Source: a virus
Taxonomy: Duplodnaviria > Heunggongvirae > Uroviricota > Caudoviricetes
Strand: one strand, 5' to 3'
DNA: 64,000 nucleotides
Virus record (IMG/VR): IMGVR_UViG_3300043429_000511
Location: 1 to 64,000 of that record
The position numbers and the translations under genes are program-made. Under the pieces are notes generated by a model. The model saw only the letters and a program-made list of their open reading frames with translations. It was not told the DNA's origin and did not search any database. The stretch's first letter is position 1; each line of letters begins with the position of its first letter. Positions 11,118 to 57,182 of the stretch are shown piece after piece.

Positions 11118-11215
11118 TTTGTTTTTGTAGTCAGGACAGGATTCGAACCTGTAGGATAGGGCTTACCAAGAGCGACTCTGCCTAACGTCCATTAACGTAA
11201 TCGTTACCAATTCCG
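11118..11215 (-). tRNA. tRNA-like gene, type II (tRNA-Leu-like D-arm; possible UAA anticodon) with irregular anticodon stem
   Basis: 7-bp acceptor agtcagg/cctgact, T-arm acagg-TTCGAAT-cctgt, D-arm GGTGGCGGAATTGGTAA nearly identical to E. coli tRNA-Leu; anticodon region acgt-taatgg-acgt is non-canonical; 98 nt, no encoded CCA. Confidence 0.5.
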
Positions 11216-11345
11216 CCACCTGACTATATTTTTATTATTGTGTTAACATCGTAATCACAATACCTAATAAGATTGAAAAAATTACAGCGGTTATTGTAAA
11301 TCCTACCATAATGCCATCAAAATATGTTTTTTCTTTTTTCATAAC

Positions 11346-23491: not shown

Positions 23492-23522
23492 CAAAGATAA
23501 TAATGTTTTTGAATATTCCAAA
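23492..23522 (-). promoter_or_regulatory. Bacteroidota-type promoter (TTTG-N19-TAtcTTTG-N4-ATG)
   Basis: minus-strand reading upstream of 23487; TTTGGAATATTC extended -33. Confidence 0.55.
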
Positions 23523-23557
23523 AAATATCTAGTATTTTTTATAAAAAAGATATTCCG

Positions 23558-23923
23558 TTATATTCTTTGGAAAACGTCATCAACGATTGAGTCTGCCAAC
23601 TCTTTGTAACCCTCTTCTGTTTTATATCTATCATTGAAGGTTTGGATAGAATGAATTGCGGTTGTGTGGTCTCTACCACTAACCATTTCACCAATACTTT
23701 TCAAAGGGTAAGAAAATTCTTTTCTCATTACCGCACAAAATATGTGTCTTGCGTCACATACTTCTCTTTTTCTTCCTCTTGAAAGAATCTCAGTTACAGT
23801 CACACCGCAATGTTCTGCGACGATACTCATAATTTTTTCAGGGGAAATAAGACTTCTTTTGATTCTCTTCTTTTTAGGTAATAATGTTTGTTTAATACCC
23901 GGATAAACGTAAGGACTAATCAT
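23558..23923 (-). CDS. DnaA C-terminal domain (domain IV)-like HTH DNA-binding protein
   Basis: IMSIVAEHCGVTVTEILSRGRKREVCDARHIFCAVMRKEFSYPLKSIGEMVSGRDHTTAIHS matches DnaA domain IV signature. Confidence 0.65.
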   Translation of the reverse strand: MISPYVYPGIKQTLLPKKKRIKRSLISPEKIMSIVAEHCGVTVTEILSRGRKREVCDARHIFCAVMRKEFSYPLKSIGEMVSGRDHTTAIHSIQTFNDRYKTEEGYKELADSIVDDVFQRI

Positions 23924-23944
23924 TCATTCGTTTTTTATGATTAA

Positions 23945-24445
23945 TTAATATTTGATGTAACTTATACCACCTTGAGTTCCGTTGAGTGAGTTGTTGTATT
24001 TTTTCTGTGCAACATCTCTCGGAATTATTTTAGAATTCTTGTGGTAGATTGCCCATTTCCATTCTTTATCAGGTCTATAACCAGGACCTTTCCAATGGTG
24101 ATGTAATGATTTAGAATAACTTTCTAATCTTATAACCGTACCCTCTAAAACACTATTTTCAGATACTTCAAGATACGGCATTCCTTCATATAATTTTGTT
24201 TTATTTGGACAATTATACATAACCGCATAACCACAAGAAACTGATACTTCTAAATCTGCATCACTTCTTGCTGAAATCAAAAGTGCAATATCTGTTGGTG
24301 CTTTTAATTCCTTCTTAACTTTTGATTCGTACTCAATAAGTCTAGCAAGATTGGAACCAAACTTCTTCATTGCCGCTTGTGGTGAATCAAAGATATCAGT
24401 ACAGATACCTTCTTTTAATTGTACTTTATATTGTTTAACTTGCAT
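23945..24445 (-). CDS. hypothetical protein
   Basis: 166-aa ORF. Confidence 0.45.
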   Translation of the reverse strand: MQVKQYKVQLKEGICTDIFDSPQAAMKKFGSNLARLIEYESKVKKELKAPTDIALLISARSDADLEVSVSCGYAVMYNCPNKTKLYEGMPYLEVSENSVLEGTVIRLESYSKSLHHHWKGPGYRPDKEWKWAIYHKNSKIIPRDVAQKKYNNSLNGTQGGISYIKY

Positions 24446-24456
24446 AATATATTTGT

Positions 24457-25539
24457 TTAAAGTGAGCCTGAACGGAATGTTTGAGGTTGGTTTTCTCTAT
24501 CTTCATATTGACGTTCTTCATTTCTTTCTTCGAGTTCACCCATCAATCTTCTTTCTCTTATTCTTCTTTCTTCATTTCTTCTTTCAATTGCTTGACTAAA
24601 AGGGTTTAATCTATCTTGTCTCTCTTCTTGGACCGGTTCTTCCATAACTGGAGATGGTTCTTCCATTGAAACAGTTTCTCTTAACTCTTCTCCTATGGGA
24701 GATGGTGCGTCGAACAAATCTGATTTACTTTTCATTAATTTATCTTCGATTACCCTTTGTTCATCGGACAATAAAAATCTATTTGTTTTTGCTTTCTTCT
24801 CTTTAGAAACAGATTGAATCAAGAGTCTAATCTCATCAGTCAATTCAGTATCTAATGAATCAATTCTACTATCTTTTTGATTCCAAAAAGAAAACTCAGG
24901 GTCATTTTTATCTAAAGAATAAAAACTTGCAACTTTATATCCCGTTACTTTGTTAATACAATATATTAATACTCCTTTAGACGAATACTTAATAAAATAT
25001 TCAGGATTACCTTCAGATGTTGTGCACCATTTAGTATTTGAACCATACTTTTTAGATGCTAAGTATGTTAATGGTCTAACAATTAACCACTCGTCAGTGT
25101 CCATTAGTTTAACTATTTGGGTTTCCATCTGTTTTGTGGTGACTTTCATTTCAGCCATACTCAATTGATTTAAAACATCTTCAAATGATTTATACTTACT
25201 TAAATCATTTTGTGAAATTAAACCTCTTTCATTGTATTCACAAAACTTTCTAAAACTTCTTAAATCTTCAAAATTAAAGAACGCGTCAAGAAATCTAAAC
25301 ATTAATAAAACTTGAATGTCAGAAAAATTATTCAAATCCTCCATTCGAATGAAATCAAATTTATTAATCAATGATGTTTTGATTTCAAGTATGTGTTCAT
25401 CTAATGAACTGGTGTTTCTCATTAATCTTAGTAACGTGTCTGTGTACTTTGATTTCTTTTCAGGACTGAACAGCTCTAAAACATCTATTAAATTTAAGAC
25501 ATTTTGTGTATCAGTTTTTAGTTCTTTTATCTTTGACAT
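24457..25539 (-). CDS. hypothetical protein with Glu/Arg-rich C-terminus
   Basis: 360 aa; EERRIRERR repeats. Confidence 0.5.
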   Translation of the reverse strand: MSKIKELKTDTQNVLNLIDVLELFSPEKKSKYTDTLLRLMRNTSSLDEHILEIKTSLINKFDFIRMEDLNNFSDIQVLLMFRFLDAFFNFEDLRSFRKFCEYNERGLISQNDLSKYKSFEDVLNQLSMAEMKVTTKQMETQIVKLMDTDEWLIVRPLTYLASKKYGSNTKWCTTSEGNPEYFIKYSSKGVLIYCINKVTGYKVASFYSLDKNDPEFSFWNQKDSRIDSLDTELTDEIRLLIQSVSKEKKAKTNRFLLSDEQRVIEDKLMKSKSDLFDAPSPIGEELRETVSMEEPSPVMEEPVQEERQDRLNPFSQAIERRNEERRIRERRLMGELEERNEERQYEDRENQPQTFRSGSL

Positions 25540-25590
25540 TATTAAAAAGTTTTTAATAAAAATATAGAGTTTTTATTTTAAAATAACAAA

Positions 25591-26079
25591 TTATTTGATG
25601 TTATTTGTTCTATCCCATTTAGCTTTTCTTGCTTCTGGTGATAACATATGACTCTCATCAATTGTATGAGGGATTTGAACTCTTACACACGTTTGCGGTA
25701 ATCTACTATTCATAAAATAATTGTTGATGTAGCCCATCATATTTGCAGAGCCTATTGGGTTCGCGGAGTGGATATAAATCTGTGGTAGTGGTATGTTTTT
25801 ATTCATACTCTCAGCAACTAACCACTTACAACAATCATAACCTGTTTTCTCATTAACTATATTGTCATAGTTTAATGTGTAGTTATTTTTTACGTTTGTA
25901 TAATATTCAACCATTGACAGTTCACCTAAGTCGTGGTCCAATGATATAACTTCATAGTTCTCTAAACCATTCAGTCTTATATGACTAACAAACTCATCAT
26001 AGTTTCTTACTACTTTCCAATCACCTTCTGTTGGTGTTCTTACATCATCAAGATATAAGTAAATTTTATTTTTATTCAT
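25591..26079 (-). CDS. hypothetical protein
   Basis: 162-aa ORF. Confidence 0.45.
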   Translation of the reverse strand: MNKNKIYLYLDDVRTPTEGDWKVVRNYDEFVSHIRLNGLENYEVISLDHDLGELSMVEYYTNVKNNYTLNYDNIVNEKTGYDCCKWLVAESMNKNIPLPQIYIHSANPIGSANMMGYINNYFMNSRLPQTCVRVQIPHTIDESHMLSPEARKAKWDRTNNIK

Positions 26080-27268
26080 CTTTTTTAAATGGTTTTGAAT
26101 ATTTTGGATATAGATTTTTCCAAATCAAATCCGAGTAATCTTTATTATCTAACATTCTAAATAGAAGTGCCTGCAAATCTAATTTTTGTTCTTTAATTTT
26201 TAATGCAGATTCTTTTCTTGTCATTTCAGGTTTAATAATGTTCATAAATGTTAACTGACACATTGTGTCGGTTATTCGATACATTTCCAAGAACTTACTT
26301 TCCTCACCCTTTACCCAATCATAGAATTCATCTGGTACTTTATCCAATATTTCATCGAGTGGTTTACCTGCTCTTAGATATTCCCATATGTCACGATTGG
26401 ATACATTAGTTAAAATTCTATGAAGTCGTTTATACTCTTCTCCTTTGATTTTCATACGAAAACCATTCTTGAAACGAACAACATATCCCTCTCTATCCTT
26501 TGATATCTCCTCCTTCAACAAATCATAACCTTCTCCCCAAGTTTTATATAACATAACAACACGAAATCCAATATTGGAAATCATATTTTGAAATCGAATG
26601 TCTTCATCGCTGTTATGAATATCAACTTCATTACCTGATTTTGTTTCAATCATTCCTAACAAAACAATATCTTCATAATCATATTCACACACTATTCTAT
26701 TCTCTTTGTAAATTATCTCAAACAAATATGTGTAACCCTTGTGTAGTCTTTCGAAATCATATCTATCTAAAAGTTCTTTTCCTTTAATTGCTTGTGACGA
26801 TGTAAATGACCCACGAGTTGCCATAATCCATTCACCTTTTATTTTAGGTGTTGGTTCATAATATGGATTATCAAAATCAGGTAAGTTCTTTGGGTCAAAA
26901 AACTTTTCCATACCTGTTTCATAATTGTTATTAAACCATATGTTGTATCTTCTTTCGTCACTCAATTCATATTCATAATAAAAAAGAATACCTAATGACC
27001 CATCCATTTTTTCATAAACCTCAAAAAATTCGTTTGGTAAATCTTCAGGTTTATGTTCTTCGTAGTTAAAGAATTTCTTAAATGGTCTTGCAACAATATC
27101 ACCTTTAGAATTGGTAACCAATCCGCGACATTGAATTGTAACATCATCCCACAACTTTTCATATTGAACTCTTGGACTATAATTCCAAATAGTTAAATCG
27201 AGAGTTGGGTGAGTCTGTTTATGTAACAACCCATCTTTATGATATTTTTCTAATGTCTCTAATTTCAT
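26072..27268 (-). CDS. RNA ligase 1 (T4 RnlA-like)
   Basis: IQCRGLV...ARPFKKFFNYEE and EKMDGSL (KxDG motif I) align to T4 Rnl1 ALECRGIMF...SRPMEKFFNLNE / TKEDGSL. Confidence 0.75.
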   Translation of the reverse strand: MKLETLEKYHKDGLLHKQTHPTLDLTIWNYSPRVQYEKLWDDVTIQCRGLVTNSKGDIVARPFKKFFNYEEHKPEDLPNEFFEVYEKMDGSLGILFYYEYELSDERRYNIWFNNNYETGMEKFFDPKNLPDFDNPYYEPTPKIKGEWIMATRGSFTSSQAIKGKELLDRYDFERLHKGYTYLFEIIYKENRIVCEYDYEDIVLLGMIETKSGNEVDIHNSDEDIRFQNMISNIGFRVVMLYKTWGEGYDLLKEEISKDREGYVVRFKNGFRMKIKGEEYKRLHRILTNVSNRDIWEYLRAGKPLDEILDKVPDEFYDWVKGEESKFLEMYRITDTMCQLTFMNIIKPEMTRKESALKIKEQKLDLQALLFRMLDNKDYSDLIWKNLYPKYSKPFKKDE

Positions 27269-27918
27269 CTATCAACGTTTAACATATCATCTGTGTGATG
27301 GTCATCAGCACCAAGTTCTGAACCTATTTCTCTTTTCTTCATATCGTTCAATATCTTCTTCAAATCATATGGTGCGAACTCAGGGTTACCATCCATACCA
27401 ACATCCATTCTACGTCCATTACTATACTTTTTATGGTTAGGTAAGTGACAGTGTCCGTGAAGATGAACACGTCCTTTACGTAATCCATTCCACGACGATA
27501 TTGGATAGTGACACATCTCTATTGTTTCGCCTTGATATGAGAATTGTTCAAACCAATTCACGCTTAGAAATTTGTTACGAATATCATCTCGATTTCTGTC
27601 AATGTGATGGTCGTGATTACCTAAAACTAAATGAATATTCTTACAAATTAATCTGTTGTAAAATTCTTCTATTTGTTCAAATCCACCAAACGACCAGTCA
27701 CCCAAATGTATTAACACATCATCTTGACCAACCAATTCATTAATGTTATTTACAATTGCAGAATTCATTTTATCGATAGTTTCGAAATCTCTAGTTTGTG
27801 CTATCGGTATTGAACCATCAGGCATTCTCCATTTGGTAGTTCCTCGACATATATTACTATGATTGTAATGTGTGTCGGATGTTATCCAAACCTTTATGTG
27901 ATTATCTATCTTTATCAT
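27265..27918 (-). CDS. calcineurin-like metallophosphoesterase (putative 2',3'-phosphatase of RNA repair)
   Basis: ITSDTHYNH, HLGDW, LGNHDH, GHCH motifs; 4-nt overlap with ligase gene. Confidence 0.7.
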   Translation of the reverse strand: MIKIDNHIKVWITSDTHYNHSNICRGTTKWRMPDGSIPIAQTRDFETIDKMNSAIVNNINELVGQDDVLIHLGDWSFGGFEQIEEFYNRLICKNIHLVLGNHDHHIDRNRDDIRNKFLSVNWFEQFSYQGETIEMCHYPISSWNGLRKGRVHLHGHCHLPNHKKYSNGRRMDVGMDGNPEFAPYDLKKILNDMKKREIGSELGADDHHTDDMLNVDR

Positions 27919-27922
27919 CTTA

Positions 27923-28423
27923 CTAACAAAAATCTGTTGATGTACTTACTCGAAGTCCATCGATTATTAAATCGTCATATTTTTCATTATCAGTCCAAAA
28001 TGACCCGTGACCTTTTAGTCTTTGTTCTTTACGATATTCTTTATTAACAACCAAACCATCAGGTTCACCCCAATTAAGTGCCATCACAATAAACTCATTT
28101 ACATCTAACTCTTCTCCATATTCATCAACAACACGACCATCTCTAATGAATTTAAGTAGTTCTTCTTTATTGGAGTAGTATTTGTTATCGTGAAAATTCC
28201 AACAGAATTTCCAACCACTACTTCGTTTACCTAAGTGAATATTGGTACCATTAATGAAAGTGTCCCAAGGTGATTCTGAACCCCATTGGTCATCAACAGC
28301 GACTCTAAATCCACATTCAATGTTAGATGGTGATATGTCTAAATTGGTGATACTATGAATTAGTTTAATCTTTTTGTTTTCCATCTCTTCCACAGTTGGA
28401 ATTCGATAATAATTTGTTCCCAT
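27923..28423 (-). CDS. hypothetical protein between kinase and phosphoesterase
   Basis: 166-aa ORF. Confidence 0.45.
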   Translation of the reverse strand: MGTNYYRIPTVEEMENKKIKLIHSITNLDISPSNIECGFRVAVDDQWGSESPWDTFINGTNIHLGKRSSGWKFCWNFHDNKYYSNKEELLKFIRDGRVVDEYGEELDVNEFIVMALNWGEPDGLVVNKEYRKEQRLKGHGSFWTDNEKYDDLIIDGLRVSTSTDFC

Positions 28424-28478
28424 TGTTAGTAAGTTCTTTTACGTAAAAATACATATTATTATTGATATTACAAAATAT

Positions 28479-28508
28479 CAAAAAAAAATCCCCGAAAAAT
28501 CGGGGATT
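28479..28508 (-). terminator. rho-independent terminator (minus strand)
   Basis: atccccga-aaaa-tcggggat hairpin preceded by A9 on plus strand (U-run on minus). Confidence 0.55.
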
Positions 28509-28511
28509 AAA

Positions 28512-28946
28512 TTATAACTTAACGTTGAATCGGTCTTTCATTTGTTTGACTTTTTCATCCGGTACCCCGTGTACATTACTACTTCCGTGACGATTCTCAA
28601 CAACAAGAGTATGGACACGATATTTGTATCTTTCCGCAATTTCAAAATACTTCTCCATTTCCCACTCCTCGGTAAATGTATTTGCAACAACGATTCTACT
28701 GAATTCATTCTTCATTCTCTCAGCACATTTCAAAAGACAATCATTATGAGCCTCTTTCAATTTTGAACCGTCGAAATTGTAAATTCCTTTATCAGACATA
28801 AAGAAGTTATCCGCAGATAAAACATCGGGATTATCACCTCTCACACATCTCAAAATAACCTCACCTACAGTAGTTTTCCCTGAACCAGGTACTCCTCGTA
28901 GTAAGATTAAATCACCAATATATTCTTTATCTTCCATATTGTACAT
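28512..28946 (-). CDS. P-loop polynucleotide 5'-kinase-like protein
   Basis: GVPGSGKTT Walker A, SADNFF, ENRHGSSNVHGVP resembling T4 Pnk GCPGSGKST / RDDY / KRNSKRGTKAVP. Confidence 0.65.
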   Translation of the reverse strand: MYNMEDKEYIGDLILLRGVPGSGKTTVGEVILRCVRGDNPDVLSADNFFMSDKGIYNFDGSKLKEAHNDCLLKCAERMKNEFSRIVVANTFTEEWEMEKYFEIAERYKYRVHTLVVENRHGSSNVHGVPDEKVKQMKDRFNVKL

Positions 28947-28959
28947 TTTTATAAATACC

Positions 28960-29499
28960 CTACAAAGATATAAAACTTGGTAATTCTAAATCCTTATCTG
29001 ATATTCTTTTTTGAGTTTCTGGTATTTTCCAATCAATTTTTAAGGTTTCGTCATTGTAAACGATTCCACCTTCAGACTCCTTATTGTATTGATTATCAAC
29101 CTTATATTGAAAGATTGCATTGGTACTTAATACTGAGAATCCGTGTGCACATCCCCTTGGGACAAAGAGTTGTCTATTCAAAGACCAACCCAACTCCACC
29201 TTAACAACTTCACCGTAGGTTAAGGAGTCCTTTCTAATATCCACCACAACGTCCAAAACACGTCCTTGTGTACACGTTACTAACTTAGCCTGTTCATACT
29301 CTCCCTTTTGGAAATGAAGTCCTCTAATGGTCCCATAATGAGAATATGACATATTATCCTGAACGAACTCAACATCATATCCCACATTTTGATTAAAGTC
29401 TTCTTTATTGTATGGTACCGAGAAGAATCCTCTATCGTCGTGAAACGATTCGTATGTGATAAGAAAACATCCCTCGATGTCTGTCTTGATAAACTTCAT
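28960..29499 (-). CDS. rmlC: dTDP-4-dehydrorhamnose 3,5-epimerase
   Basis: cupin RmlC signatures RGLHFQ, VPRGCAHGF. Confidence 0.85.
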   Translation of the reverse strand: MKFIKTDIEGCFLITYESFHDDRGFFSVPYNKEDFNQNVGYDVEFVQDNMSYSHYGTIRGLHFQKGEYEQAKLVTCTQGRVLDVVVDIRKDSLTYGEVVKVELGWSLNRQLFVPRGCAHGFSVLSTNAIFQYKVDNQYNKESEGGIVYNDETLKIDWKIPETQKRISDKDLELPSFISL

Positions 29500-30443
29500 T
29501 ATTGAATGTTTTTAAACATTTGAGGTACTGTTCCATACACCGGTAACTTACCATCCCATTTATTAATGTACTCTAATTGTAACAACAATGGAGTTAATGT
29601 TGCTTGTTTTAATCTGTTTGATTCCGCTTCCGCCTTTGCAGATGTCAACATTGCTTGAGCGTTACCTTCGGCGGTTGCCACTTTAATCTTAGCTTGTGCC
29701 TCGGCCGTTTTAACTTCATTCTCCGCTCTCAATGCCGCTTGAACTGCGTTGTTCTTAGCTTCAATAGACTTCTTAAATGTCTCAGGATAAATCAAGTTAG
29801 ATGTGAATTGGTTGATAACAAATCCTTCTTTTAATAACTGCCCATCCAATAATCTACGAACTTCAATTTCAAATACCGCTCTGTTACTAATTAATTCATC
29901 GGCAGTATATTTGTTAGTAGCCAATCTGAACGCATCGTACACCGCAGTCTTTAAGAAACCTTCTTCAATGTCCTCTAATGGTCTACGATACTTACTAAAT
30001 ATGGATGGTACTTTTTCTCTTTGTACTGAATAGTTCATAATTGGTGAGACACTAAATTCACTACCGTCCTTACTATTCACAACAAATGAATTCTCACCTT
30101 TATATTCTTTATGTTGGATGAATGTAGGAAATTCATATACTGTTGTGGTAATTGGGTTGTAAAATACCATACCGGTCACCGCAACCACGGCATCAACTCC
30201 CTTATCATCACCATATTGATTTACTTTGACACCAACGTGTCCTGCGTCGATTCTCTCACAAGAGAAAAATAAAAAAGTTAATGTAAAAAATAATCCTACT
30301 CCGATTAAAATGTTTCTCATAATTTGTTTTCTTTTTTGTTGTTGTTGTTGATTAAATTCGCTCTCCATTCGGTCGAGCTCTTCTTTTGTTCTACGATTTC
30401 CGTATCTATCGTACTGATTATCGTATCTACTAAATGATGCCAT
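29499..30443 (-). CDS. SPFH/band-7 (HflK/C-like) membrane protein
   Basis: N-terminal TM, SPFH core and Ala/Glu-rich coiled coil AQAALRAENEVKTAEAQAKIKVATAEGNAQA. Confidence 0.75.
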   Translation of the reverse strand: MASFSRYDNQYDRYGNRRTKEELDRMESEFNQQQQQKRKQIMRNILIGVGLFFTLTFLFFSCERIDAGHVGVKVNQYGDDKGVDAVVAVTGMVFYNPITTTVYEFPTFIQHKEYKGENSFVVNSKDGSEFSVSPIMNYSVQREKVPSIFSKYRRPLEDIEEGFLKTAVYDAFRLATNKYTADELISNRAVFEIEVRRLLDGQLLKEGFVINQFTSNLIYPETFKKSIEAKNNAVQAALRAENEVKTAEAQAKIKVATAEGNAQAMLTSAKAEAESNRLKQATLTPLLLQLEYINKWDGKLPVYGTVPQMFKNIQ

Positions 30444-30444
30444 A

Positions 30445-30843
30445 TTATTTTGTTTTATTTATTGTTGTACGATGAGGTTCTATTGGAAATTCAGGTTTGT
30501 TTTTCTTTCTGGTTTTCACAAAAGGTTCGTCGGTCTTAACCCCATCAAATTGTTTTGGATTTCTTTTTTTCTTCGGTTTTAATTCATCAGGATTAATGTA
30601 ATCGAGTTCGGTTTCACCCGGTTCAATATTCATCAAACCATCAACGAACTTATCCATTTTAATGTAGTAATAAACAAATATTAAACTGAATAAACCAATG
30701 ACCGCAGATAAAATATTAAACATCGTATTTGATGCGGTTAATCCTGGAAATACAATGAATGTAAAAATTGCAAATACCCCGAAACCAATAAAAATTGGTG
30801 AAGATGTTTTCTCCGAGAAAACTTTTTTAAAAATGTCTTTCAT
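30445..30843 (-). CDS. membrane protein (possible NfeD-like partner of SPFH)
   Basis: two TM helices; gene abuts SPFH start. Confidence 0.35.
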   Translation of the reverse strand: MKDIFKKVFSEKTSSPIFIGFGVFAIFTFIVFPGLTASNTMFNILSAVIGLFSLIFVYYYIKMDKFVDGLMNIEPGETELDYINPDELKPKKKRNPKQFDGVKTDEPFVKTRKKNKPEFPIEPHRTTINKTK

Positions 30844-30892
30844 AGTTAGTGTGTTTTATTAAAATATATTGAATAATTTTCGTATTTCCAAA

Positions 30893-31213
30893 TTATTGCT
30901 CGAATTTTTTATAAGTCATCCCATAAAACCCGTAATTTGTTATTACCGATTCTTTGTCTCCCATTGAAACAGCAACTTCTTCTGTTGGGAAGATTGCATC
31001 GACAGGACATTCGGGTTCACAAGCACCGCAATCAATACAAGTGTCAGGATTAATATATAATTGTTTACCAAATAATTCTTCCTTCGACATTGTGGAAATC
31101 TCCGAAGCAATTCTATCTGTATGAATTGGTCCATTGATGGCATCAACAGGACAAACAGATACACAACTGGTATCTAAACAATTAATACATTTTTTTCCAA
31201 TAATATATGACAT
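30893..31213 (-). CDS. 2x[4Fe-4S] ferredoxin
   Basis: [14 protein letters not shown] and [12 protein letters not shown] cluster motifs. Confidence 0.8.
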
Positions 31214-31222
31214 ATAATAATT

Positions 31223-31639
31223 TTAACTATCAAACCAAAAGACAAATCGAGGAACCATTCCGCGACTGTCAAGTGCTTTCATTATATCTAATACAAGATG
31301 GTAATCGGTTCCAACAAATACATCTTCATCTTCATTCTTTAACATCTCATCAATTAACATCTCATATTCATTTAATGATAACCAAGAATGTGAATGATTG
31401 TATTCGTCATCACCATTAGCTTCCCTAACTTCAAAACTTAGATTATCTTTTGGTAATCCTTTTGGTCTCACACCAAATTCCAATTCGGGGTTATATCTAA
31501 CCGCACCATCAGTTAAATAACCAAAGACATTATAGTTTCTACCTAAACTAAGTTCTTCCGAAACCGCATTCCATTGCGGTTCATCTCTTTTATCGTCCTT
31601 ACTACGATACTCAATAAATCCGTGAATGTCACAACCCAT
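31223..31639 (-). CDS. hypothetical protein
   Basis: 138-aa ORF. Confidence 0.45.
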   Translation of the reverse strand: MGCDIHGFIEYRSKDDKRDEPQWNAVSEELSLGRNYNVFGYLTDGAVRYNPELEFGVRPKGLPKDNLSFEVREANGDDEYNHSHSWLSLNEYEMLIDEMLKNEDEDVFVGTDYHLVLDIMKALDSRGMVPRFVFWFDS

Positions 31640-37174: not shown

Positions 37175-37378
37175 TTAATACCCATAATGAGAATCCATAT
37201 TTCTCTTATGTTGGTGTTTGGGTTTTTCTGGTTTTTCGATATTCCAATCTAAGAAATCTTCTCCTTTATAATCAGGGTGATTTTTTTGCATATAATCAAT
37301 ACCCCTCACCCAAAAAAATGAGATGATTGCTGCCAATCCAAAACTGCAACCAATTCCAATTAGATAACTTTCCATCAT
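37175..37378 (-). CDS. small membrane protein (holin/spanin candidate)
   Basis: 67 aa, one TM, immediately downstream of lysin. Confidence 0.35.
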   Translation of the reverse strand: MMESYLIGIGCSFGLAAIISFFWVRGIDYMQKNHPDYKGEDFLDWNIEKPEKPKHQHKRNMDSHYGY

Positions 37379-37971
37379 TTGTTTTCTGTTAAGTAGTTTA
37401 AAATTTTCTCTTTAATACCTGATTGTTTTATCCCCTCAGTTCTTCTAGTTGTTAGGACAAAATTGGTTAATCCCCAATCCATTTCCATATCACCCCACGA
37501 TTCGTGAACTTGAGGGATTCCCATATTCAAATCATCGACAGCAACCCAATGAGTAATCTCAGGATGGTCGTGTAGATACTGAGTAATTTCAATTGAACGT
37601 TCCTGTTCTAACATCCATCTTGGTGACCAAGCAAATGTGTGTTCATTATAACAAGTACAATCGGACACACTTTTAGTAAATCCTATCGGTTTCTTTATAA
37701 TTCCTTGAGATTCATAATACTCACCCATCTCCTCAACATTCGCCCACTTTTTCCAATCAGACGAAACAACAATCTCAGCATCTGTCTCTTCAAGTATTTC
37801 ATTTAATACCTCAATAGCTTTTTTATTAAAATTATCGAATCTTACATCAACAGGTAAAGATGAAACTGATTGACTCAACTTGCGTTTTGCTTTTTGTTGT
37901 TTTTTAACTCTACCACCCCACTCGGTTGCTAAACATATCACACCATCGTGGTCAAGAAATATTACCTTCAT
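37375..37971 (-). CDS. HAD-superfamily phosphatase-like protein
   Basis: N-terminal FLDHDGVI (DxDGV motif I); C-terminal VAVDD. Confidence 0.5.
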   Translation of the reverse strand: MKVIFLDHDGVICLATEWGGRVKKQQKAKRKLSQSVSSLPVDVRFDNFNKKAIEVLNEILEETDAEIVVSSDWKKWANVEEMGEYYESQGIIKKPIGFTKSVSDCTCYNEHTFAWSPRWMLEQERSIEITQYLHDHPEITHWVAVDDLNMGIPQVHESWGDMEMDWGLTNFVLTTRRTEGIKQSGIKEKILNYLTENK

Positions 37972-38748: not shown

Positions 38749-39096
38749 TTACCTAAAATAAATTCTATCGGGAAAATCACCGAAAACAAACTTCGTAACG
38801 TCACATAACCACATACTTAAATCATAACTTAATCCCTTATATGACATCAATCTGTACCAACCCCCCTCACCTAATTCCCAAGCCTCAAGTCTTCCATAAT
38901 ATTCAAATTCCAATACTTCACAATTTTCAAATGGTTTATCCGATAAAATCACGTAAACTTCATTTTCACCTTGTGATAAAAGCTCCAAAAAAGTGTCAGC
39001 CCCTGAAACCATTTGAAGGTCCCAACGTTCCCCTTCCCATTCAGGTATATCTATAAACCATCCGTAGTTGTCTTTATAGAATCTGTAATGTTTCAT
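38749..39096 (-). CDS. hypothetical protein
   Basis: 115 aa; N-terminus MKHYRFYKDN weakly FKFF-like. Confidence 0.4.
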   Translation of the reverse strand: MKHYRFYKDNYGWFIDIPEWEGERWDLQMVSGADTFLELLSQGENEVYVILSDKPFENCEVLEFEYYGRLEAWELGEGGWYRLMSYKGLSYDLSMWLCDVTKFVFGDFPDRIYFR

Positions 39097-41099: not shown

Positions 41100-42053
41100 T
41101 TATTTTGAAGATTCCAAATAATTGTGAATAAAATTTATTCTTTGACCAATCCAATACATAACATTAACTGTCATTGAATTACCCACAGCACCTTTCACGT
41201 TTGAATATGAAGGTTTTTTTCCGTTGATTTCAAAATCTAAATAACCATCGGGAAACCCTTGTAATCTTTCTAGTTCTCTTTCAGTAAATGTTCTGATACC
41301 ATTATCATCTACCCAATAGTTTGAGGTAGATACTTTACCAAACCCATCAACCAATGTTCTTGCGTAGGATTTGGTTACCGTACCAGCGAGTTTAATTTGT
41401 CCGAGAATATTTTTGGTGTACTCATCCCTCTTGAGTTTATTCTTTTCTTCAACGCTTTCAAAACATCCTTCTTCAAATAATACTGAGAATGGGACTCTCC
41501 AGTCTTTTCCACGATATCCGACAATATAGATTCTTTTGCGTCGTTGGGGAACTCCGAAGTATTGCGAGTCGAAAACCCTATAAGCGATTGAGTAATTTTC
41601 CCCTTGGACAACCCCTTGTTTTTCGATGTGTTCAGGTCTGAAGTCAACTCCTGTGAAAGAGGTGATGATTTGACATAAGGCTTTTTTGTGTTGACTTTTA
41701 AAAACGCCTTCGACATTTTCCCAAATGAACCACTTAGGTCGTTTTTCTTTAAGAATTTGTCCATAGCTAAGGGCGATTTGACCACGGATATCATCCATTC
41801 CTTTGTTGAGTCCTGCATCGGAAAAAGATTGACAAGGCGTTCCTCCGACCAATAAGTCGAATTTTGTTTTTTTGTACGTTTCATTTGTGTTGAGTTTAGT
41901 AATGTCAGTAAATAAAGGTGTGTTTGGGTAGTGATGTGATAGAACTTGTTGTGGGAACTTTGCAAAGTCACATACACCTTTACATTCCCAACCAAGTGGT
42001 GACCAAGCTACGGTAGCCGCTTCGATTCCACTGCAAACAGATAGGTATTTCAT
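41100..42053 (-). CDS. DNA (cytosine-5)-methyltransferase
   Basis: motif I LSVCSGIEA, motif IV GGTPCQSFS, motif VI WENVEGV. Confidence 0.85.
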   Translation of the reverse strand: MKYLSVCSGIEAATVAWSPLGWECKGVCDFAKFPQQVLSHHYPNTPLFTDITKLNTNETYKKTKFDLLVGGTPCQSFSDAGLNKGMDDIRGQIALSYGQILKEKRPKWFIWENVEGVFKSQHKKALCQIITSFTGVDFRPEHIEKQGVVQGENYSIAYRVFDSQYFGVPQRRKRIYIVGYRGKDWRVPFSVLFEEGCFESVEEKNKLKRDEYTKNILGQIKLAGTVTKSYARTLVDGFGKVSTSNYWVDDNGIRTFTERELERLQGFPDGYLDFEINGKKPSYSNVKGAVGNSMTVNVMYWIGQRINFIHNYLESSK

Positions 42054-46551: not shown

Positions 46552-47688
46552 TTAGTTACTTAGTGGTGCCTTTATTGGTGGATGTGATTGATAGTTTTCC
46601 AATATCACATCTTGCCCTCCAAATGAAAATATACCATCTCTAACGTGCACAGTTGGTAAATCAAATGGTTCTCTTTTTATTTGTTCTTTTGCTTGTTCTA
46701 TATGATTCTTATATAAATGTACATCACCTAAATTCCCTATCAATTCATCAGGTACCATATTCATTTCATCCGCAATCATTGTTAACAATAAACCATATGA
46801 TGCGATATTGAATGGTAATCCTAAGAATGTATCTACCGAACGTTGGTTCCACATTAATGAGATGGCTCTTTTAGGTATGTTATATACTTCCAGTTCTTCA
46901 CTCAATCCTCCACCGAATGGAACTATGTCATCTACCATCAATTGAAACTTATCGTCACCGACTTTCTTCTTTAATAAATCCCACCTCTCTTCACCGGTTA
47001 GCTCTCTTGTATAAACTTGAAATCCATAATGACAAGGTGGTAAAACCATTTGACCTAATTCACTTACATTCCAAGCACTAACCATCAATCTTCTACTATC
47101 TGGATTTGTTTTAAGTTGTAATATTAGATTTGAGATTTGGTCAATTGATGTAGATATTTCAGGATAATGTGTGTTACCATCATACCATTCATTCTCTTGG
47201 TATTTCCAACTTCTCCATTGCTTACCATAGATTGGCCCTAACTCACCCCACTTCTTAGCAAACTCATCGTCGGTTTTAATTTTGTTAATGAACTCTGACT
47301 GTGTTAATGGTGTTAATTTATCTGAATCACTAAACCAAACTTCCATATGTGGTTGCATCCCCATTATATCACCACACTTATATCCATCAATAACATCATT
47401 AATTTTTTTAGTGTAGTTCTTATATGCGTCACCATCCCAAATATGACAATTATTATCTACAAGATATTTGATGTTAGTACTTCCACTTAAGAACCAAATC
47501 AATTCGGTTACCATAGTTTTCCAAGCCATCTTTTTAGTGGTGAGTAATGGAAACCCTTGTGACATCCTATGTCTTATTTGACGACCGAATACTGATATAG
47601 TACCAGTGCCTGTTCTATCGGTTTTAACAACACCATTATCTAAAATGTCTTGTAATAATTCTTGATACTTACTATCTAGTGTGTTCAT
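46552..47688 (-). CDS. thymidylate synthase family enzyme (ThyA-like; possibly dUMP/dCMP hydroxymethylase) with ~80-aa internal insertion
   Basis: KTDRTGTGTISVFG, FPLLTTKK, LPPCHYGFQ, C-terminal GDVHLYKNH...HPPIKAPL; 378 aa vs ~265-315 typical. Confidence 0.7.
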   Translation of the reverse strand: MNTLDSKYQELLQDILDNGVVKTDRTGTGTISVFGRQIRHRMSQGFPLLTTKKMAWKTMVTELIWFLSGSTNIKYLVDNNCHIWDGDAYKNYTKKINDVIDGYKCGDIMGMQPHMEVWFSDSDKLTPLTQSEFINKIKTDDEFAKKWGELGPIYGKQWRSWKYQENEWYDGNTHYPEISTSIDQISNLILQLKTNPDSRRLMVSAWNVSELGQMVLPPCHYGFQVYTRELTGEERWDLLKKKVGDDKFQLMVDDIVPFGGGLSEELEVYNIPKRAISLMWNQRSVDTFLGLPFNIASYGLLLTMIADEMNMVPDELIGNLGDVHLYKNHIEQAKEQIKREPFDLPTVHVRDGIFSFGGQDVILENYQSHPPIKAPLSN

Positions 47689-52476: not shown

Positions 52477-53832
52477 ATGAAGAAAAAGATATTATTGTTA
52501 TCTGATGATTTGAGAATGACATCAGGTATATCTACTATGTCGAAAGAACTTGTATTGGGTACCATTCACAAGTACGATTGGGTACAATTGGGTGCTGCAA
52601 TTCAACACCCTGAATTTGGTAAAGTAGTAGATATAAATCAAGATGTGAGAGACAGAACCGGTATTGAAGATGCTAACCTTAAAATATATCCTAACCACGG
52701 TTATGGTGATATTAATATTCTAAGAACATTATTAGCGGTTGAGAAACCAGATGCTATCTTACACTTTACAGACCCACATTATTGGCAATGGTTGTACGAT
52801 AATGAACACGAAATAAGACAACAAGTTCCAATATTATATTACCATATTTGGGACGATTTACCTGACCCAAAATATAATAGAGATTACTACGAGAGTTGTG
52901 ATTGGATTGGTTGTATATCTAAACAGACTTATGGTATTGTTCATCGAGTTGGTAAAATGATTGATGAAGTTACACATAAACCATTGGAAGATTGGCAAAT
53001 TAGTTACGTACCTCACGGAATCAATCCAAAGGTATTCAAACCTTTAGATAATGTTAGTGACGACATCAAGAAACTAATTTTTGGTGATAAGGAATATGAT
53101 TTTGTGTTATTCTATAACAACAGAAATATTAGAAGAAAACAACCATCTGATGTGATTTATTCATATAAATTATTCTGTGATAAATTACCAAAAGAACATT
53201 CAGATAAATGTTTATTATTAATGCACACTGCAGCTGTGGATGAGAACGGAACTGACTTACCTGCGGTAATTGAAGCGTTATGTCCTTATGATGTTAAGTT
53301 TACAGGGTTGAAATTAGAACAAGATAAATTAAACGAGATTTATAATCTTGTTGATTGTACAATCAACATCGCAAATAACGAAGGGTTTGGTTTAACAACT
53401 GCAGAATCATTAATGGCGGGTACACCAATCATTGTAAATGTAACTGGTGGTTTACAAGACCAATGTGGATTTAATTATAGTGCCGATAACTACATAACAT
53501 TTGGTACTCTACACGATAGAAAGACACACGGTTCAACATTACACGGTGAATGGGCTTTCCCAATTTGGCCATCGGCAATTAATTTAAACGGTTCAGTACC
53601 TACACCATATATTTTTGATGATAGGGTTAATGATGATGAAGTTGCAAATACTATTTCAACAGTTTATGCTCAGGGTCGACCAGAAAGAAAGAGAAGAGGT
53701 TTGTTGGGTAGAGAATTTATGATTAAGAATTTATCTTCTGACATTATGAATAACTCATTGATTGAAGGTATTGAAAGAGTTTTTGAAAACTATAAACCAA
53801 GAAAAAGATTTGACTTATATAAGATAATATAA
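52477..53832 (+). CDS. glycosyltransferase family 4 (GT-B)
   Basis: EGFGLTTAESLMAGTPIIV (E-x7-E motif). Confidence 0.8.
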   Translation: MKKKILLLSDDLRMTSGISTMSKELVLGTIHKYDWVQLGAAIQHPEFGKVVDINQDVRDRTGIEDANLKIYPNHGYGDINILRTLLAVEKPDAILHFTDPHYWQWLYDNEHEIRQQVPILYYHIWDDLPDPKYNRDYYESCDWIGCISKQTYGIVHRVGKMIDEVTHKPLEDWQISYVPHGINPKVFKPLDNVSDDIKKLIFGDKEYDFVLFYNNRNIRRKQPSDVIYSYKLFCDKLPKEHSDKCLLLMHTAAVDENGTDLPAVIEALCPYDVKFTGLKLEQDKLNEIYNLVDCTINIANNEGFGLTTAESLMAGTPIIVNVTGGLQDQCGFNYSADNYITFGTLHDRKTHGSTLHGEWAFPIWPSAINLNGSVPTPYIFDDRVNDDEVANTISTVYAQGRPERKRRGLLGREFMIKNLSSDIMNNSLIEGIERVFENYKPRKRFDLYKII

Positions 53833-53833
53833 T

Positions 53834-55081
53834 ATGAAACCATTTTTATTATTTAGGGGACCGGTAAAAACAAGAAGTGGGTATGGTGCACATTCAAGAG
53901 ATTTGTTACAAGCACTATACGAAATGGATTTGTTTGAGATAAAGATAGATAGTTGTATGTGGGGGTCAACTCCGATGACCGCATTGGAAAAAGATAATCA
54001 GTTTCATAGATGGATTGAATCTAATATAATTAATCCGATGAATATCACATCAGATATATACGTTCAGGTAACAGTACCTAATGAATTTACCAGAAGAGGT
54101 AAATTTAACATTGGAATCACTGCGGGAATTGAAACAACCGTTGCACCTAAAGAATGGGTTGATGGTTGTAATAGGATGGATTTAATTATTACAACATCAA
54201 AGTTTTCAAAAGAAGTGTTGTTATCAACTGTCTATAATGAAAATGAAAACAACACAGGGAAACTAATTAAACAACATAAAATACAAAAACCAATCGAAGT
54301 TCTATTTGAGGGTGTCGATATTTCTACATTCAATAATGAGTACAAAGGTATTGATTTGGACATTAAAGAAGATTTTGCTTACTTGTTTGTTGGTCATTGG
54401 TTAAAAGGTTCTCTCGGACAAGATAGAAAAGATGTGGGAATGATGATTAAATGTTTTATGGAATCATTCAAAGATGTTGAGGATAAACCCGCACTAATAC
54501 TTAAAACATCATCAGCAACTTTTTCAATAAAAGAACGTGAGAACGTAAGAAGAAAGATTGAAGAATTAACAAAGGGGTACGATAATCCGCCGTCGGTGTA
54601 CCTTTTATTTGGTGAATTGACTAATCAAGAAATGAATGAATTGTATAATCATCCTAAGATTAAATCAATGGTATCAATCACCAAGGGTGAAGGTTTCGGT
54701 AGACCTCTATTAGAATTTTCAATGACGGGAAAACCAATCGTTGCATCTAATTGGTCGGGACATAAAGATTTCTTACCTATGGATAAAGCAATTATGATTG
54801 GTGGTTCATTGACTGATGTGCACGAAAGTGCCGCTGATAGTTTTATTTTGAAGGGTTCTAAATGGTTTACCGCAAATTATAATGAATTTGCGGAAGTGTT
54901 AAGATTAGTTAAAAATGATTATGAGAAATTCAAAGAAAAATCTGAAATACTGAGAGAAGAAAATAAAGAAAAGTTTTCAATGGAAAAAATGAAAGAAGTG
55001 TTTATGGACTTAATTAAACCATACACCGTTCAACCTAAAGAACATAATTTGGTTTTACCAAAGTTGACAAAAATTAAGTAA
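53834..55081 (+). CDS. glycosyltransferase family 4 (GT-B)
   Basis: GEGFGRPLLEFSMTGKPIV. Confidence 0.75.
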   Translation: MKPFLLFRGPVKTRSGYGAHSRDLLQALYEMDLFEIKIDSCMWGSTPMTALEKDNQFHRWIESNIINPMNITSDIYVQVTVPNEFTRRGKFNIGITAGIETTVAPKEWVDGCNRMDLIITTSKFSKEVLLSTVYNENENNTGKLIKQHKIQKPIEVLFEGVDISTFNNEYKGIDLDIKEDFAYLFVGHWLKGSLGQDRKDVGMMIKCFMESFKDVEDKPALILKTSSATFSIKERENVRRKIEELTKGYDNPPSVYLLFGELTNQEMNELYNHPKIKSMVSITKGEGFGRPLLEFSMTGKPIVASNWSGHKDFLPMDKAIMIGGSLTDVHESAADSFILKGSKWFTANYNEFAEVLRLVKNDYEKFKEKSEILREENKEKFSMEKMKEVFMDLIKPYTVQPKEHNLVLPKLTKIK

Positions 55082-55344
55082 TGTCGTTTAAATTTTTAAG
55101 GGATAATAATAGTTTATTTTCTGATTTAGAACCGACACAAATTTTAACATTAAGTCGAGCGGCTTATTATCCTCAAAATGTTGAATTTTGTTTTCAGTTC
55201 GGGGACAACGAACCTACGGTATTTGCAACAGGTCCTAATGAATGTACCATTCGTTTATCACCGAGCCCTGATGGTAATGTCACATTTACAAGTAATGAAG
55301 GTTCAACATTTAAATTATTTGCAAGGGAGATAGGAAATGATTAG
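55081..55344 (+). CDS. FKFF-motif family protein
   Basis: N-terminus MSFKFLRDNN. Confidence 0.5.
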   Translation: MSFKFLRDNNSLFSDLEPTQILTLSRAAYYPQNVEFCFQFGDNEPTVFATGPNECTIRLSPSPDGNVTFTSNEGSTFKLFAREIGND

Positions 55345-55555
55345 TGAATTTAAATTTTTTAGAGGTATTTCTAAAAAGGCAAGAGTGTTACGTGTAGATT
55401 GGAGACCAGAAATATTAGAGACAGGTGTCAATTATACTGATATTGTATCAGAATTATCAAGAGCACTTTCTGAACAGATTTCTCGTGAAATCGATAACGA
55501 CATTGTGAATCAACTAACAAGAAGAATAAACGGAGGATATAATCAAAGAGCATAA
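55337..55555 (+). CDS. FKFF-motif family protein
   Basis: N-terminus MISEFKFFRGI. Confidence 0.5.
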   Translation: MISEFKFFRGISKKARVLRVDWRPEILETGVNYTDIVSELSRALSEQISREIDNDIVNQLTRRINGGYNQRA

Positions 55556-55558
55556 AAT

Positions 55559-56179
55559 ATGATATTAAGTTACGCAATTACAGTTTGTAATGAATTAGAT
55601 GAAATCAAAAGATTGTTACCTTTCTTGATTGAGAAAAAAGGAACTAATGATGAGGTGGTAATTCTTTTTGATGAGAAAAATGGTTCTCCAGAAGTACTTG
55701 AATATTTGTTAGAGTTTAATAAATTACCAAATGTACAGACTTGGAGAGGATTGGATTTTGAAAATAATTTTGCGGATTGGAAGAACAAATTATCTGACTA
55801 TTGTAAAGGTGATTACATATTCCAATTAGACGCCGATGAATTGGTTGGTGAAATGTTTATGTTAAACATTAAACCTATTCTTGAGACTAACCCTGAAGTT
55901 GATTTATATTATCTATCAAGAATAAACATTGTTGATGGTATAACTGATGAACATATAAGGAAGTGGGGTTGGAGTGTGAACCAAAATGGTTGGATAAACT
56001 TTCCTGATAAACAGGGTAGAATATTCAGAAAGAATTTAAAGTGGTTTGGTAATGTTCACGAAAGAATAATGGGTGCAGAAACAATTACCTCATTACCTGA
56101 TAGTGAAGATTTTTGTATAATCCACCACAAAAAAATCGAAAGACAAGAAAAACAAAATAACTTTTACTTAACATTATAA
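55559..56179 (+). CDS. glycosyltransferase-like (GT-A, tentative)
   Basis: LSYAITVCNELDE N-term, QLDADE (DxD-like). Confidence 0.45.
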   Translation: MILSYAITVCNELDEIKRLLPFLIEKKGTNDEVVILFDEKNGSPEVLEYLLEFNKLPNVQTWRGLDFENNFADWKNKLSDYCKGDYIFQLDADELVGEMFMLNIKPILETNPEVDLYYLSRINIVDGITDEHIRKWGWSVNQNGWINFPDKQGRIFRKNLKWFGNVHERIMGAETITSLPDSEDFCIIHHKKIERQEKQNNFYLTL

Positions 56180-56180
56180 A

Positions 56181-57179: not shown

Positions 57180-57182
57180 TAT

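Follow-up and report, generated by a model that had tools for sequence, protein, structure and literature searches.

A predicted phage module for RNA healing and sealing and its candidate new accessory protein

The DNA analyzed here is a stretch of 64,000 nucleotides (nt) covering positions 1 to 64,000 of the IMG/VR virus record IMGVR_UViG_3300043429_000511 (Caudoviricetes), referred to below as the window. On its minus strand, the window encodes a cluster of five genes: a P-loop kinase, an uncharacterized protein of 166 amino acids (aa) that we call UNK, a metallophosphoesterase (MPE), an Rnl1-type ligase and a cREC domain protein. We interpret it as a known type of RNA healing-and-sealing module of phages, to which UNK may add a new accessory component. 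The RNA-repair reading is supported by the gene content of the cassette, the catalytic motifs of its proteins, the packing of its genes, its conservation and the recurrence of the kinase, phosphoesterase and ligase trio in unrelated phages. It is likely that these separate small genes form a phage module that heals and seals RNA, most likely tRNA, with biochemical activities, an RNA target, a host nuclease and a role of UNK that we infer.

The cassette lies inside a long array of minus-strand genes that extends over 6.2-52 kb of the window, which is phage-like and has a G+C content of 30-38%. The kinase (28512..28946, 144 aa) is followed by UNK (27923..28423), the calcineurin-type MPE (27265..27918, 217 aa) and the ligase (26072..27268, 398 aa). 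Our listing of open reading frames (ORFs) returned these four co-directional genes with coordinates identical to those of a preliminary description of the window, which had missed a fifth gene, encoding the cREC protein (25591..26079, 162 aa), as well as a hairpin discussed below. Based on the ORF coordinates, a gap of 88 nt separates the kinase from UNK and a gap of 4 nt separates UNK from MPE, while MPE overlaps the start of the ligase by 4 nt and the stop of the ligase overlaps the start of the cREC gene by 8 nt. The whole order of kinase, UNK, MPE, ligase and cREC is repeated in an independent contig of 130 kb (L006), with 62-80% protein identity, and the five-gene cassette is also found in near-identical contigs (L008-L015). 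The cREC gene belongs to the cluster and is linked to the RNA ligase both by its overlap and by this repeated order. When 50,697 phage records were searched with the cassette by blastn, no match was returned.

The ligase matches the RNA_lig_T4_1 family (PF09511) at 2e-16, with 61.0 bits relative to a Pfam cut-off of 28.3, and phrog_562 at 2.6e-67, and it aligns to the T4 Rnl1 structures 2c5u/5tt6 at 2.4e-7. The motif I nucleophile is found in K87-M-D-G (equivalent to T4 K99), and the residues of motifs III, IV and V are E184, E260-G261 and K273/K275, which correspond to T4 E159, E227-G228 and K240/K242. The Rnl1-specific N-terminal residues R54, K75 and F77 of T4, reportedly found to be essential by mutagenesis in the Shuman laboratory, are represented by R48, K65 and F67. 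All these residues are invariant in an alignment of eight phage ligases. With every catalytic residue kept and a profile score above the gathering threshold, the earlier assignment of this gene as an Rnl1-like ligase stands, and the protein is predicted to be an ATP-dependent RNA ligase of the Rnl1 type with sealing activity. Its score against the T4 RnlA equivalog of NCBIfam (TIGR02308) is only 64.8 bits, below the cut-off of 242.25, which indicates a member of the Rnl1 family and not an orthologue of T4 RnlA. We also observed an in-frame insert of 45 aa, YELSDERRYNIWFNNNYETGMEKFFDPKNLPDFDNPYYEPTPKIK (residues ~101-145; window 26834-26968, minus strand), located between motif I and the segment equivalent to T4 K119. 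This insert is nearly unchanged in the more distant ligase of locus L058 (59% identity) and is missing from the closer ligase of L006 (70% identity) and from all aligned ligases of isolated phages.

The two proteins encoded on either side of the ligase are candidates for the healing of 3' ends. MPE matches Metallophos (PF00149) at 1.7e-9, with 38.9 bits relative to a cut-off of 21.5, and phrog_547 at 1.7e-44. Its metal-binding motifs are complete: D15-x-H17, G73-D74, G100-N101-H102, H137 and H154/H156, found in the strings SDTHY (14-18), LGDW (72-75), GNHDHH (100-105), CHYP (136-139) and HGHCH (154-158). The calcineurin-type phosphoesterase that had been claimed for this gene is thus confirmed. 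The closest solved relative is aq_1665 of Aquifex (1xm7, 1.1e-4). The metallophosphoesterase of Clostridium thermocellum Pnkp (CthPnkp) is capable of healing RNA ends as a 2',3'-cyclic phosphodiesterase and phosphatase (PMC2190708). By analogy with this precedent, and from its linkage to the ligase and the kinase, MPE is predicted to be a 2',3'-cyclic phosphodiesterase/3'-phosphatase acting in end healing. In the Flavobacterium phage immuto, an MPE homologue directly follows a cluster of four tRNAs.

The cREC protein, of a family for which we know of no assay, matches PF20274 at 9.5e-24 (84.3 bits relative to a cut-off of 27) and phrog_1479 at 3.3e-29, and its sequence contains the acidic pairs D11-D12 and D48/D50. 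The Aravind group predicted that cREC proteins open 2',3'-cyclic phosphates and described them in operons with RNA ligases (PMC7824862, PMC9503650). A separate HAD phosphatase had been noted at 37375..37971. This stand-alone gene is real (minus strand; HAD_SAK_2 at 3.9e-21), and lies 9 kb from the cassette. It is of the "Swiss-army-knife" RNA-repair type and is probably an additional 3'/2'-phosphatase.

The kinase matches AAA_33 at 6.3e-12 and phrog_2071 at 2.2e-36, with a weaker match to phrog_505, annotated as polynucleotide kinase (3.6e-6). The Walker A P-loop GxxGxGK[ST] is found as G18-V-P-G-S-G-K-T25. D46 is invariant and aligned with the catalytic general base (T4 D35, Cth D38) of annotated polynucleotide kinases (PNKs) and of a fused Pnkp-like protein, and Arg119 is conserved with annotated PNKs. 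The protein consists of the kinase domain only, without a fused HAD 3'-phosphatase. Its clade is present in 635 isolated phages, and it is 37-39% identical to a protein of phage rV5. When a profile built from this clade only was compared with solved structures, the best match, itself weak, was the fungal RNA 5'-OH kinase RazKIN (9d8a, 3.9e-6), which acts in tRNA splicing, followed by PSTK (7.6e-4). We rejected a dNMP kinase, since the sole families matched are of the AAA_33 type and the profile finds polynucleotide and RNA kinases first. The kinase is predicted to be an RNA/polynucleotide 5'-OH kinase of the phrog_2071/AAA_33 clade.

The same set of enzymes is found together in other phages. 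In the Escherichia phage rV5_ev156, a SIR2-x-Rnl1 arrangement is divergent from a kinase-phosphoesterase pair, whereas the order is phosphoesterase-ligase-kinase in the Aeromonas phage PAc, and the phosphoesterase is located 1.2 kb upstream of a ligase-kinase pair in the Pseudomonas phage EM. Using phmmer, we found that all three enzymes of each of these phages are homologous to the proteins of the window. Homologues of the kinase adjoin Rnl1 in three unrelated genera or groups (rV5-like, Pakpunavirus and Plateaulakevirus), and a weak cREC match adjoins the rV5 ligase. Neighbourhoods that combine a T4-like ligase, cREC, a kinase and a calcineurin-like phosphoesterase have been interpreted as RNA repair (PMC9503650 section 3.7.3; PMC7824862 section 3.4.9), and calcineurin-like domains sometimes stand in for HAD phosphatases in phage RNA repair (Iyer et al. 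2021). The encoding of each activity by its own gene, emphasized in the preliminary description, is correct for the three enzymes of the window, but such a split layout has already been described in phages (PMC9503650, PMC7824862).

Among the closest known systems is the rV5/Mydo type of neighbourhood, which associates a sirtuin, a T4-like tRNA ligase, cREC, a nucleotide kinase and MazG, and sometimes a calcineurin-like phosphoesterase (PMC9503650, PMC7824862). The window likewise clusters a stand-alone Rnl1-type ligase with cREC, a kinase of the same AAA_33 clade and a phosphoesterase of the same family. Unlike in the rV5/Mydo type, the genes of the window are all co-directional and tightly packed, they include the additional conserved gene UNK, and the ligase is longer, with a C-terminal extension and the insert of 45 aa. 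Neither a sirtuin nor MazG was found among the window ORFs scanned, and we rejected the sirtuin-centred variant (Iyer et al. 2022, type 2), as there is no SIR2 or MazG gene nearby.

The cassette shares with the T4 system (Pnkp and Rnl1 against PrrC) an Rnl1 ligase with the essential residues and a logic of healing followed by sealing. T4 fuses its kinase to a HAD 3'-phosphatase (DxDxT), whereas the kinase of the window is stand-alone and belongs to a different clade, and healing would be assigned to MPE and cREC, the HAD protein being of another family (SAK) and 9 kb away. The three chemistries are also found in Clostridium thermocellum Pnkp and in the fused phage family phrog_8238 (737 aa), in an N-to-C order that matches the 5'-to-3' order of the window genes. 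The resemblance in gene order to bacterial Pnkp, pointed out in the preliminary description, is supported by the collinearity of the kinase, MPE and ligase with phrog_8238 and with a fused AAA_33-Metallophos-RNA_lig_T4_1 protein of 732 aa encoded at locus L201. The order is however shuffled in the other split phage modules, so that no general rule of collinearity with Pnkp is conserved, and the window differs from bacterial Pnkp in having three separate ORFs with UNK inserted between the kinase and MPE. The ORFs scanned between 19.7 and 40.5 kb included no Hen1 2'-O-methyltransferase, the sole methylase detected being a C-5 DNA methylase at 41100-42053, and we rejected a Pnkp-Hen1 system because there is no Hen1 nearby. 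Finally, the Mucorales tRNA-splicing kinases MciKIN and RazKIN (PMC11571804) are also small monofunctional P-loop kinases that serve a separate RNA ligase. RazKIN (~170 aa) is eukaryotic and GTP-specific, and its likeness to the kinase of the window is mostly limited to the P-loop and one central segment.

Based on these data, we propose the following pathway. A metal-independent RNase of the host would leave 2',3'-cyclic phosphate termini together with 5'-OH termini. The cyclic phosphate would be opened by cREC and/or MPE, and MPE would remove the resulting phosphate to yield a 3'-OH, with the HAD_SAK phosphatase as a possible back-up. The stand-alone P-loop kinase would phosphorylate the 5'-OH, and the Rnl1-type ligase would then seal the break, with K87 as the adenylylation site. 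UNK would assist end healing or substrate targeting, either as a targeting or regulatory partner or as a new end-processing activity. UNK appears tightly co-translated with MPE, and its most likely role is that of an end-healing accessory. That the damage would be caused by an anticodon nuclease is suggested by the T4 precedent only. With RNA repair, phages respond to ribotoxins of the host, for example anticodon nucleases, toxin RNases and RNases associated with CRISPR. The enzyme set of the window is compatible with the textbook pathway as a solution that differs from that of T4: MPE and cREC replace the HAD domain and the kinase is of a distinct clade.

The new element of this module is the UNK family, which is large, has an unmatched fold and is recurrently found near RNA-repair enzymes. 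We identified more than 1928 close homologues of UNK, and the family as a whole forms 591 clusters at 50% identity, nearly all of them stand-alone proteins of 100-190 aa. A tblastn search against the 50,697 isolated-phage records yielded no match, and among 185,579 species genomes UNK was found only on 40 contigs of metagenome-assembled genomes, so that the family is restricted to phages. Its members are characterized by an N-terminal MGTNYY motif, by [IV]H[LI]GKRSxGWxFxWN and DEYG motifs and by a C-terminal DGLRFSxxTxF[SC] motif. Searches with UNK against Pfam, NCBIfam, PADLOC and the PDB sequences returned no match, and the family profile searched against the PDB sequences and Pfam yielded noise only. 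A first AF2 model based on a shallow alignment (70-94% identity) reached a pLDDT of 59.7 and was discarded. With a deeper and more diverse alignment, UNK was confidently modeled as an alpha+beta protein (pLDDT 92.8, pTM 0.85). Neither the sequence nor the fold matches a curated family or a solved structure. Several longer proteins (P0152, P0143, P0175 and P0178) were considered as possible domain fusions of UNK and were set aside, as they look like chimeric or read-through calls.

To analyze the genomic context of the family, we took 120 loci of distant UNK members and screened the ORFs encoded there with Pfam and with iterated profiles built from the enzymes of the window. The UNK members described next were verified as such by alignment. 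At locus L201, 25 nt separate a UNK member from the fused kinase-phosphoesterase-Rnl1 protein encoded downstream of it. In L150, L152, L167 and L169, it lies immediately upstream of Rnl2-type ligases (PHA02142-OB and RNA_ligase). In other loci, UNK members adjoin AAA_33 kinases (L123, L177), HAD_SAK_2 (L144, L170, L193) or metallophosphoesterases in either order (L142, L188/L191), and in L187 a member is found 1.5 kb from an HD+AAA_33 protein that resembles HD-Pnk. After collapsing the homologues at 60% identity, 51 clusters were retained, with flanks of 6-8 kb. A repair gene is present within 1.5 kb of UNK in eight of these clusters and only farther out in the flanks in three. The association of UNK with RNA-repair genes is recurrent, it involves several enzyme families and it favours close proximity, but it is not obligatory.

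We further compared 80 IMG/VR loci encoding a UNK protein at 57-95% identity. What is conserved in them as a core is UNK with MPE behind it: 68 of the 80 loci contain MPE, at no more than 1.5 kb in 61 of them. HAD_SAK is found ~4 kb upstream of UNK in 56 loci and cREC at variable positions in 14. The kinase is present in seven loci only and the ligase in five, the two being confined to the lineage of the window itself, to L017 and to L058. Given that the UNK-MPE core is common and that the kinase and ligase are rare, the cassette of the window is a lineage-specific build-up around UNK-MPE. The core itself shows some variation. In L003-L005, L018, L023 and others, UNK and MPE are interrupted by a WDGH-domain gene (PF25311) or by some other small ORF, which leaves the pair otherwise no further apart, and L012 presents an insertion of ~420 nt at the UNK-MPE junction. 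Two genes of unassigned function follow cREC in the window, at 24457-25539 (minus strand, 360 aa, phrog_17056) and 23945-24445 (minus strand, 166 aa). In most related loci, both are found again downstream of UNK-MPE, and they are therefore better viewed as conserved backbone than as part of a variable repair insert. At the same backbone position upstream of HAD_SAK, L003 encodes a SIR2 gene (~7 kb upstream of UNK), and L004 and the window (38749-39096) encode DUF6717; this difference is a swap at a hotspot located beside the RNA-repair genes.

These distributions also allow a different interpretation, in which UNK is unrelated to RNA repair and the UNK-MPE pair has merely been flanked, through a mosaic accident, by later insertions of the kinase and of the ligase-cREC genes; the pair would have an ancestral function of another kind or reflect mere inheritance of synteny. 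We regard this as possible, if on the unlikely side. It would explain why UNK-MPE is the core of the 80 loci while most relatives keep this pair only, without a ligase or kinase within 8 kb, and it would fit the absence of a recognizable repair gene near UNK in 40 of the 51 clusters and the finding that most neighbours of distant UNK homologues do not belong to any known family. The terminator-like hairpin between the kinase and UNK, described below, points in the same direction. We also searched for UNK homologues at the ligase neighbourhoods of rV5, EM, PAc, Arthrobacter Seahorse and Streptomyces Coruscant and found none; UNK is thus dispensable for the basic pathway in the modules of rV5, EM and PAc. 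These points weigh against a role of UNK in repair. On the other hand, a mosaic accident does not readily account for UNK members of less than 60% identity that immediately adjoin five kinds of repair enzymes, in varied orders and lineages, nor for the one that directly precedes a fused kinase-phosphoesterase-Rnl1 protein, nor for the concentration of repair genes within 1.5 kb of UNK instead of a spread across the flanks. On balance, we lean cautiously towards UNK being a true RNA-repair accessory, and to that extent the earlier suggestion that the middle ORF is a new accessory factor is retained, on the strength of relatives adjoining several kinds of repair enzymes and tempered by the 40 clusters without such a neighbour.

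If UNK does act in RNA repair, two roles can be envisioned. It may be a previously undescribed RNA-end-processing enzyme, with H63, K66 and S68 (from the HLGKRS motif), T3/N4/Y6, E101/Y102 and R158 as candidate active-site residues, or it may be a specificity or adaptor subunit that brings MPE, HAD_SAK, the kinase and Rnl1 or Rnl2 ligases to damaged tRNA. The further proposal, in which UNK would be the founder of a phage-specific family with a new fold and a genuine component of RNA repair, as an enzyme or an adaptor, would account for its travelling with many different repair enzymes, and we advance it only tentatively. If true, UNK would be a new component of the repair "syntax" and a new fold in RNA-end biochemistry.

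Other observations weigh against the RNA-repair reading of the enzymes themselves. Where the D-x-x-R motif of T4 and Cth has its Arg (T4 R38), the kinase presents F49 instead; this position is aromatic across its clade (DNFF, DDYF, DMYF), in contrast to the DxxR of annotated PNKs. The profile of its own clade matches solved PNKs weakly (CthPnk at 6.5e-3, T4 Pnk at 0.04-0.1, and also Pnkp1), and stronger matches to PNKs arose from a profile that already included annotated PNKs. Using the single kinase sequence, nothing below 0.1 was obtained against solved structures. In addition, the homologue in rV5 was simply termed a "nucleotide kinase" by Iyer et al. The weak matches and the absent Arg lead us to consider the protein as PNK-like and not strictly T4 Pnk-like. 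It belongs to a distinct, uncharacterized clade and is not an orthologue of T4 Pnk, so that of the "T4-Pnk-like P-loop kinase" of the preliminary description the AAA_33 P-loop and the catalytic Asp46 remain, and the likeness to T4 Pnk itself does not hold in a strict sense. The MPE family is not exclusive to RNA repair, since the homologue in the Cellulophaga phage phi17:2 is found among DNA-replication genes. More generally, the enzymatic activities of the cassette proteins are predictions from sequence.

The organization of the cassette also sets the kinase apart from the UNK-MPE-ligase-cREC genes. A conserved terminator-like hairpin followed by a T-run is located between the kinase stop and UNK (28477..28508, minus strand; 9-bp stem with 5 G-C pairs). 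It is the sole terminator-like site within 23500-31500, and it is kept, its loop differing and its stem altered, in L006, L012, L013 and L017. Directly after the hairpin, ~30 nt ahead of UNK, we identified a sigma-70-like promoter match (TTGATA-17-TAATAT; 28453..28481, minus strand), which is a consensus match only, as promoter-like sites in this AT-rich region show no enrichment over shuffled sequences. The kinase is packed against the upstream genes for a dTDP-sugar epimerase and an SPFH protein. These features suggest that it is probably expressed from a separate transcript or from one that reads through the terminator. Given its packing and the hairpin that follows it, the kinase may be the last gene of the transcription unit that lies upstream, in which case the other four would make up a unit of their own or be transcribed by read-through. 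The co-transcription originally assumed for the cassette thus remains plausible for the genes from UNK to cREC, which are packed within 8 nt of one another, and is less so for the kinase, given the hairpin in the 88-nt spacer.

An improbable alternative is that cREC, MPE and possibly the kinase mainly destroy or process nucleotide signals of host immunity or derivatives of NAD/ADP-ribose (for example cyclic oligonucleotides or ADPr>P), with the ligase acting separately. In the predictions of the Aravind group, cREC acts on cyclic ADP-ribose or 2',3'-cyclic nucleotides, and nucleotide signalling is countered by calcineurin-like phosphodiesterases (PMC7824862 section 3.4.8), and MPE-UNK and cREC persist in relatives without a nearby ligase or kinase. 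Such a function does not fit well with the arrangement of the cassette, in which MPE overlaps the start of the ligase and the cREC start overlaps its stop, nor with the MPE and kinase families that adjoin Rnl1 in three phage genera unrelated to one another and that form fusions with it in L201 and phrog_8238. Moreover, the ORFs that were scanned around the cassette included no SIR2, Macro, Nudix or cyclase gene. It is very improbable that the ligase is mainly a tail-fibre attachment factor similar to T4 gp63 surrounded by unrelated nucleotide-metabolism genes: phrog_562 is annotated as "RNA ligase and tail fiber protein attachment catalyst", but this annotation goes back to T4 gp63, a protein with genuine ligase activity, and the ligase of the window has all its nucleotidyl-transferase residues intact and lies among non-structural genes, translationally coupled to the phosphoesterase and cREC.

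Beyond the five genes, RNA repair in this phage may involve an SPFH/Band-7 protein. Its gene (29499..30443, minus strand; Band_7 at 3.2e-21) is located two genes upstream of the kinase, and it is found 1-3 kb from UNK-MPE in most related loci. The nearest relatives of this protein in isolated phages are from crAss-like phages. Band-7 proteins were proposed to be cofactors or scaffolds of RNA repair by Burroughs and Aravind 2016, cited in bioRxiv 10.1101/312249. It is conceivable, at a speculative level, that this protein is a scaffold and belongs to the module. ARAGORN detected no tRNA gene in the window. A match to the Rfam tRNA model was observed at 11128-11225 (minus strand, 98 nt) with 35.2 bits, relative to a gathering score of 29. 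The acceptor, D and T arms of this element fit the model well, but 34 nt replace the 13-nt segment of the anticodon arm; the element may represent an unusual type-II tRNA or an RNA that resembles tRNA. Since tRNA-like RNAs were proposed as cofactors of Band-7-linked RNA repair, this element may be relevant to the module.

The closest proteins from isolated phages are those of the Flavobacterium phage immuto (48% identity) and of Cellulophaga phages (42%) for MPE, and those of crAss-like/Bacteroides phages (45-50%) for the SPFH protein. Together with a G+C content of 32%, this suggests that the window originates from a large uncultured phage of Bacteroidota. We considered a cyanophage origin, hinted at by a Kyano_Gp96 protein in a relative, but it is not supported, as the closest proteins are from Flavobacterium, Cellulophaga and crAss-like phages. 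The lineage that carries the cassette is abundant and uncultured, and it probably infects Bacteroidota. The practical value of the cassette resides in three proteins: cREC, the phrog_2071 kinase clade and the UNK family with its hundreds of clusters.

Several other genes of the window are worth mentioning. The gene directly upstream of the kinase encodes a dTDP-4-dehydrorhamnose 3,5-epimerase (28960-29499, minus strand; 1.7e-63), and a block of glycosyltransferase genes with a NAD-dependent sugar epimerase/dehydratase occupies 52477-58915 on the plus strand. These epimerase and glycosyltransferase genes are auxiliary sugar/surface-modification genes. The array that contains the cassette, which resembles an early-gene array, also encodes the C-5 cytosine DNA methylase mentioned above (minus strand). 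In this array are also genes for a thymidylate synthase of 378 aa (46552-47688, minus strand), which contains an insertion when compared with the Pfam model of 266 positions, and for a 2x[4Fe-4S] ferredoxin (30893-31213, minus strand).

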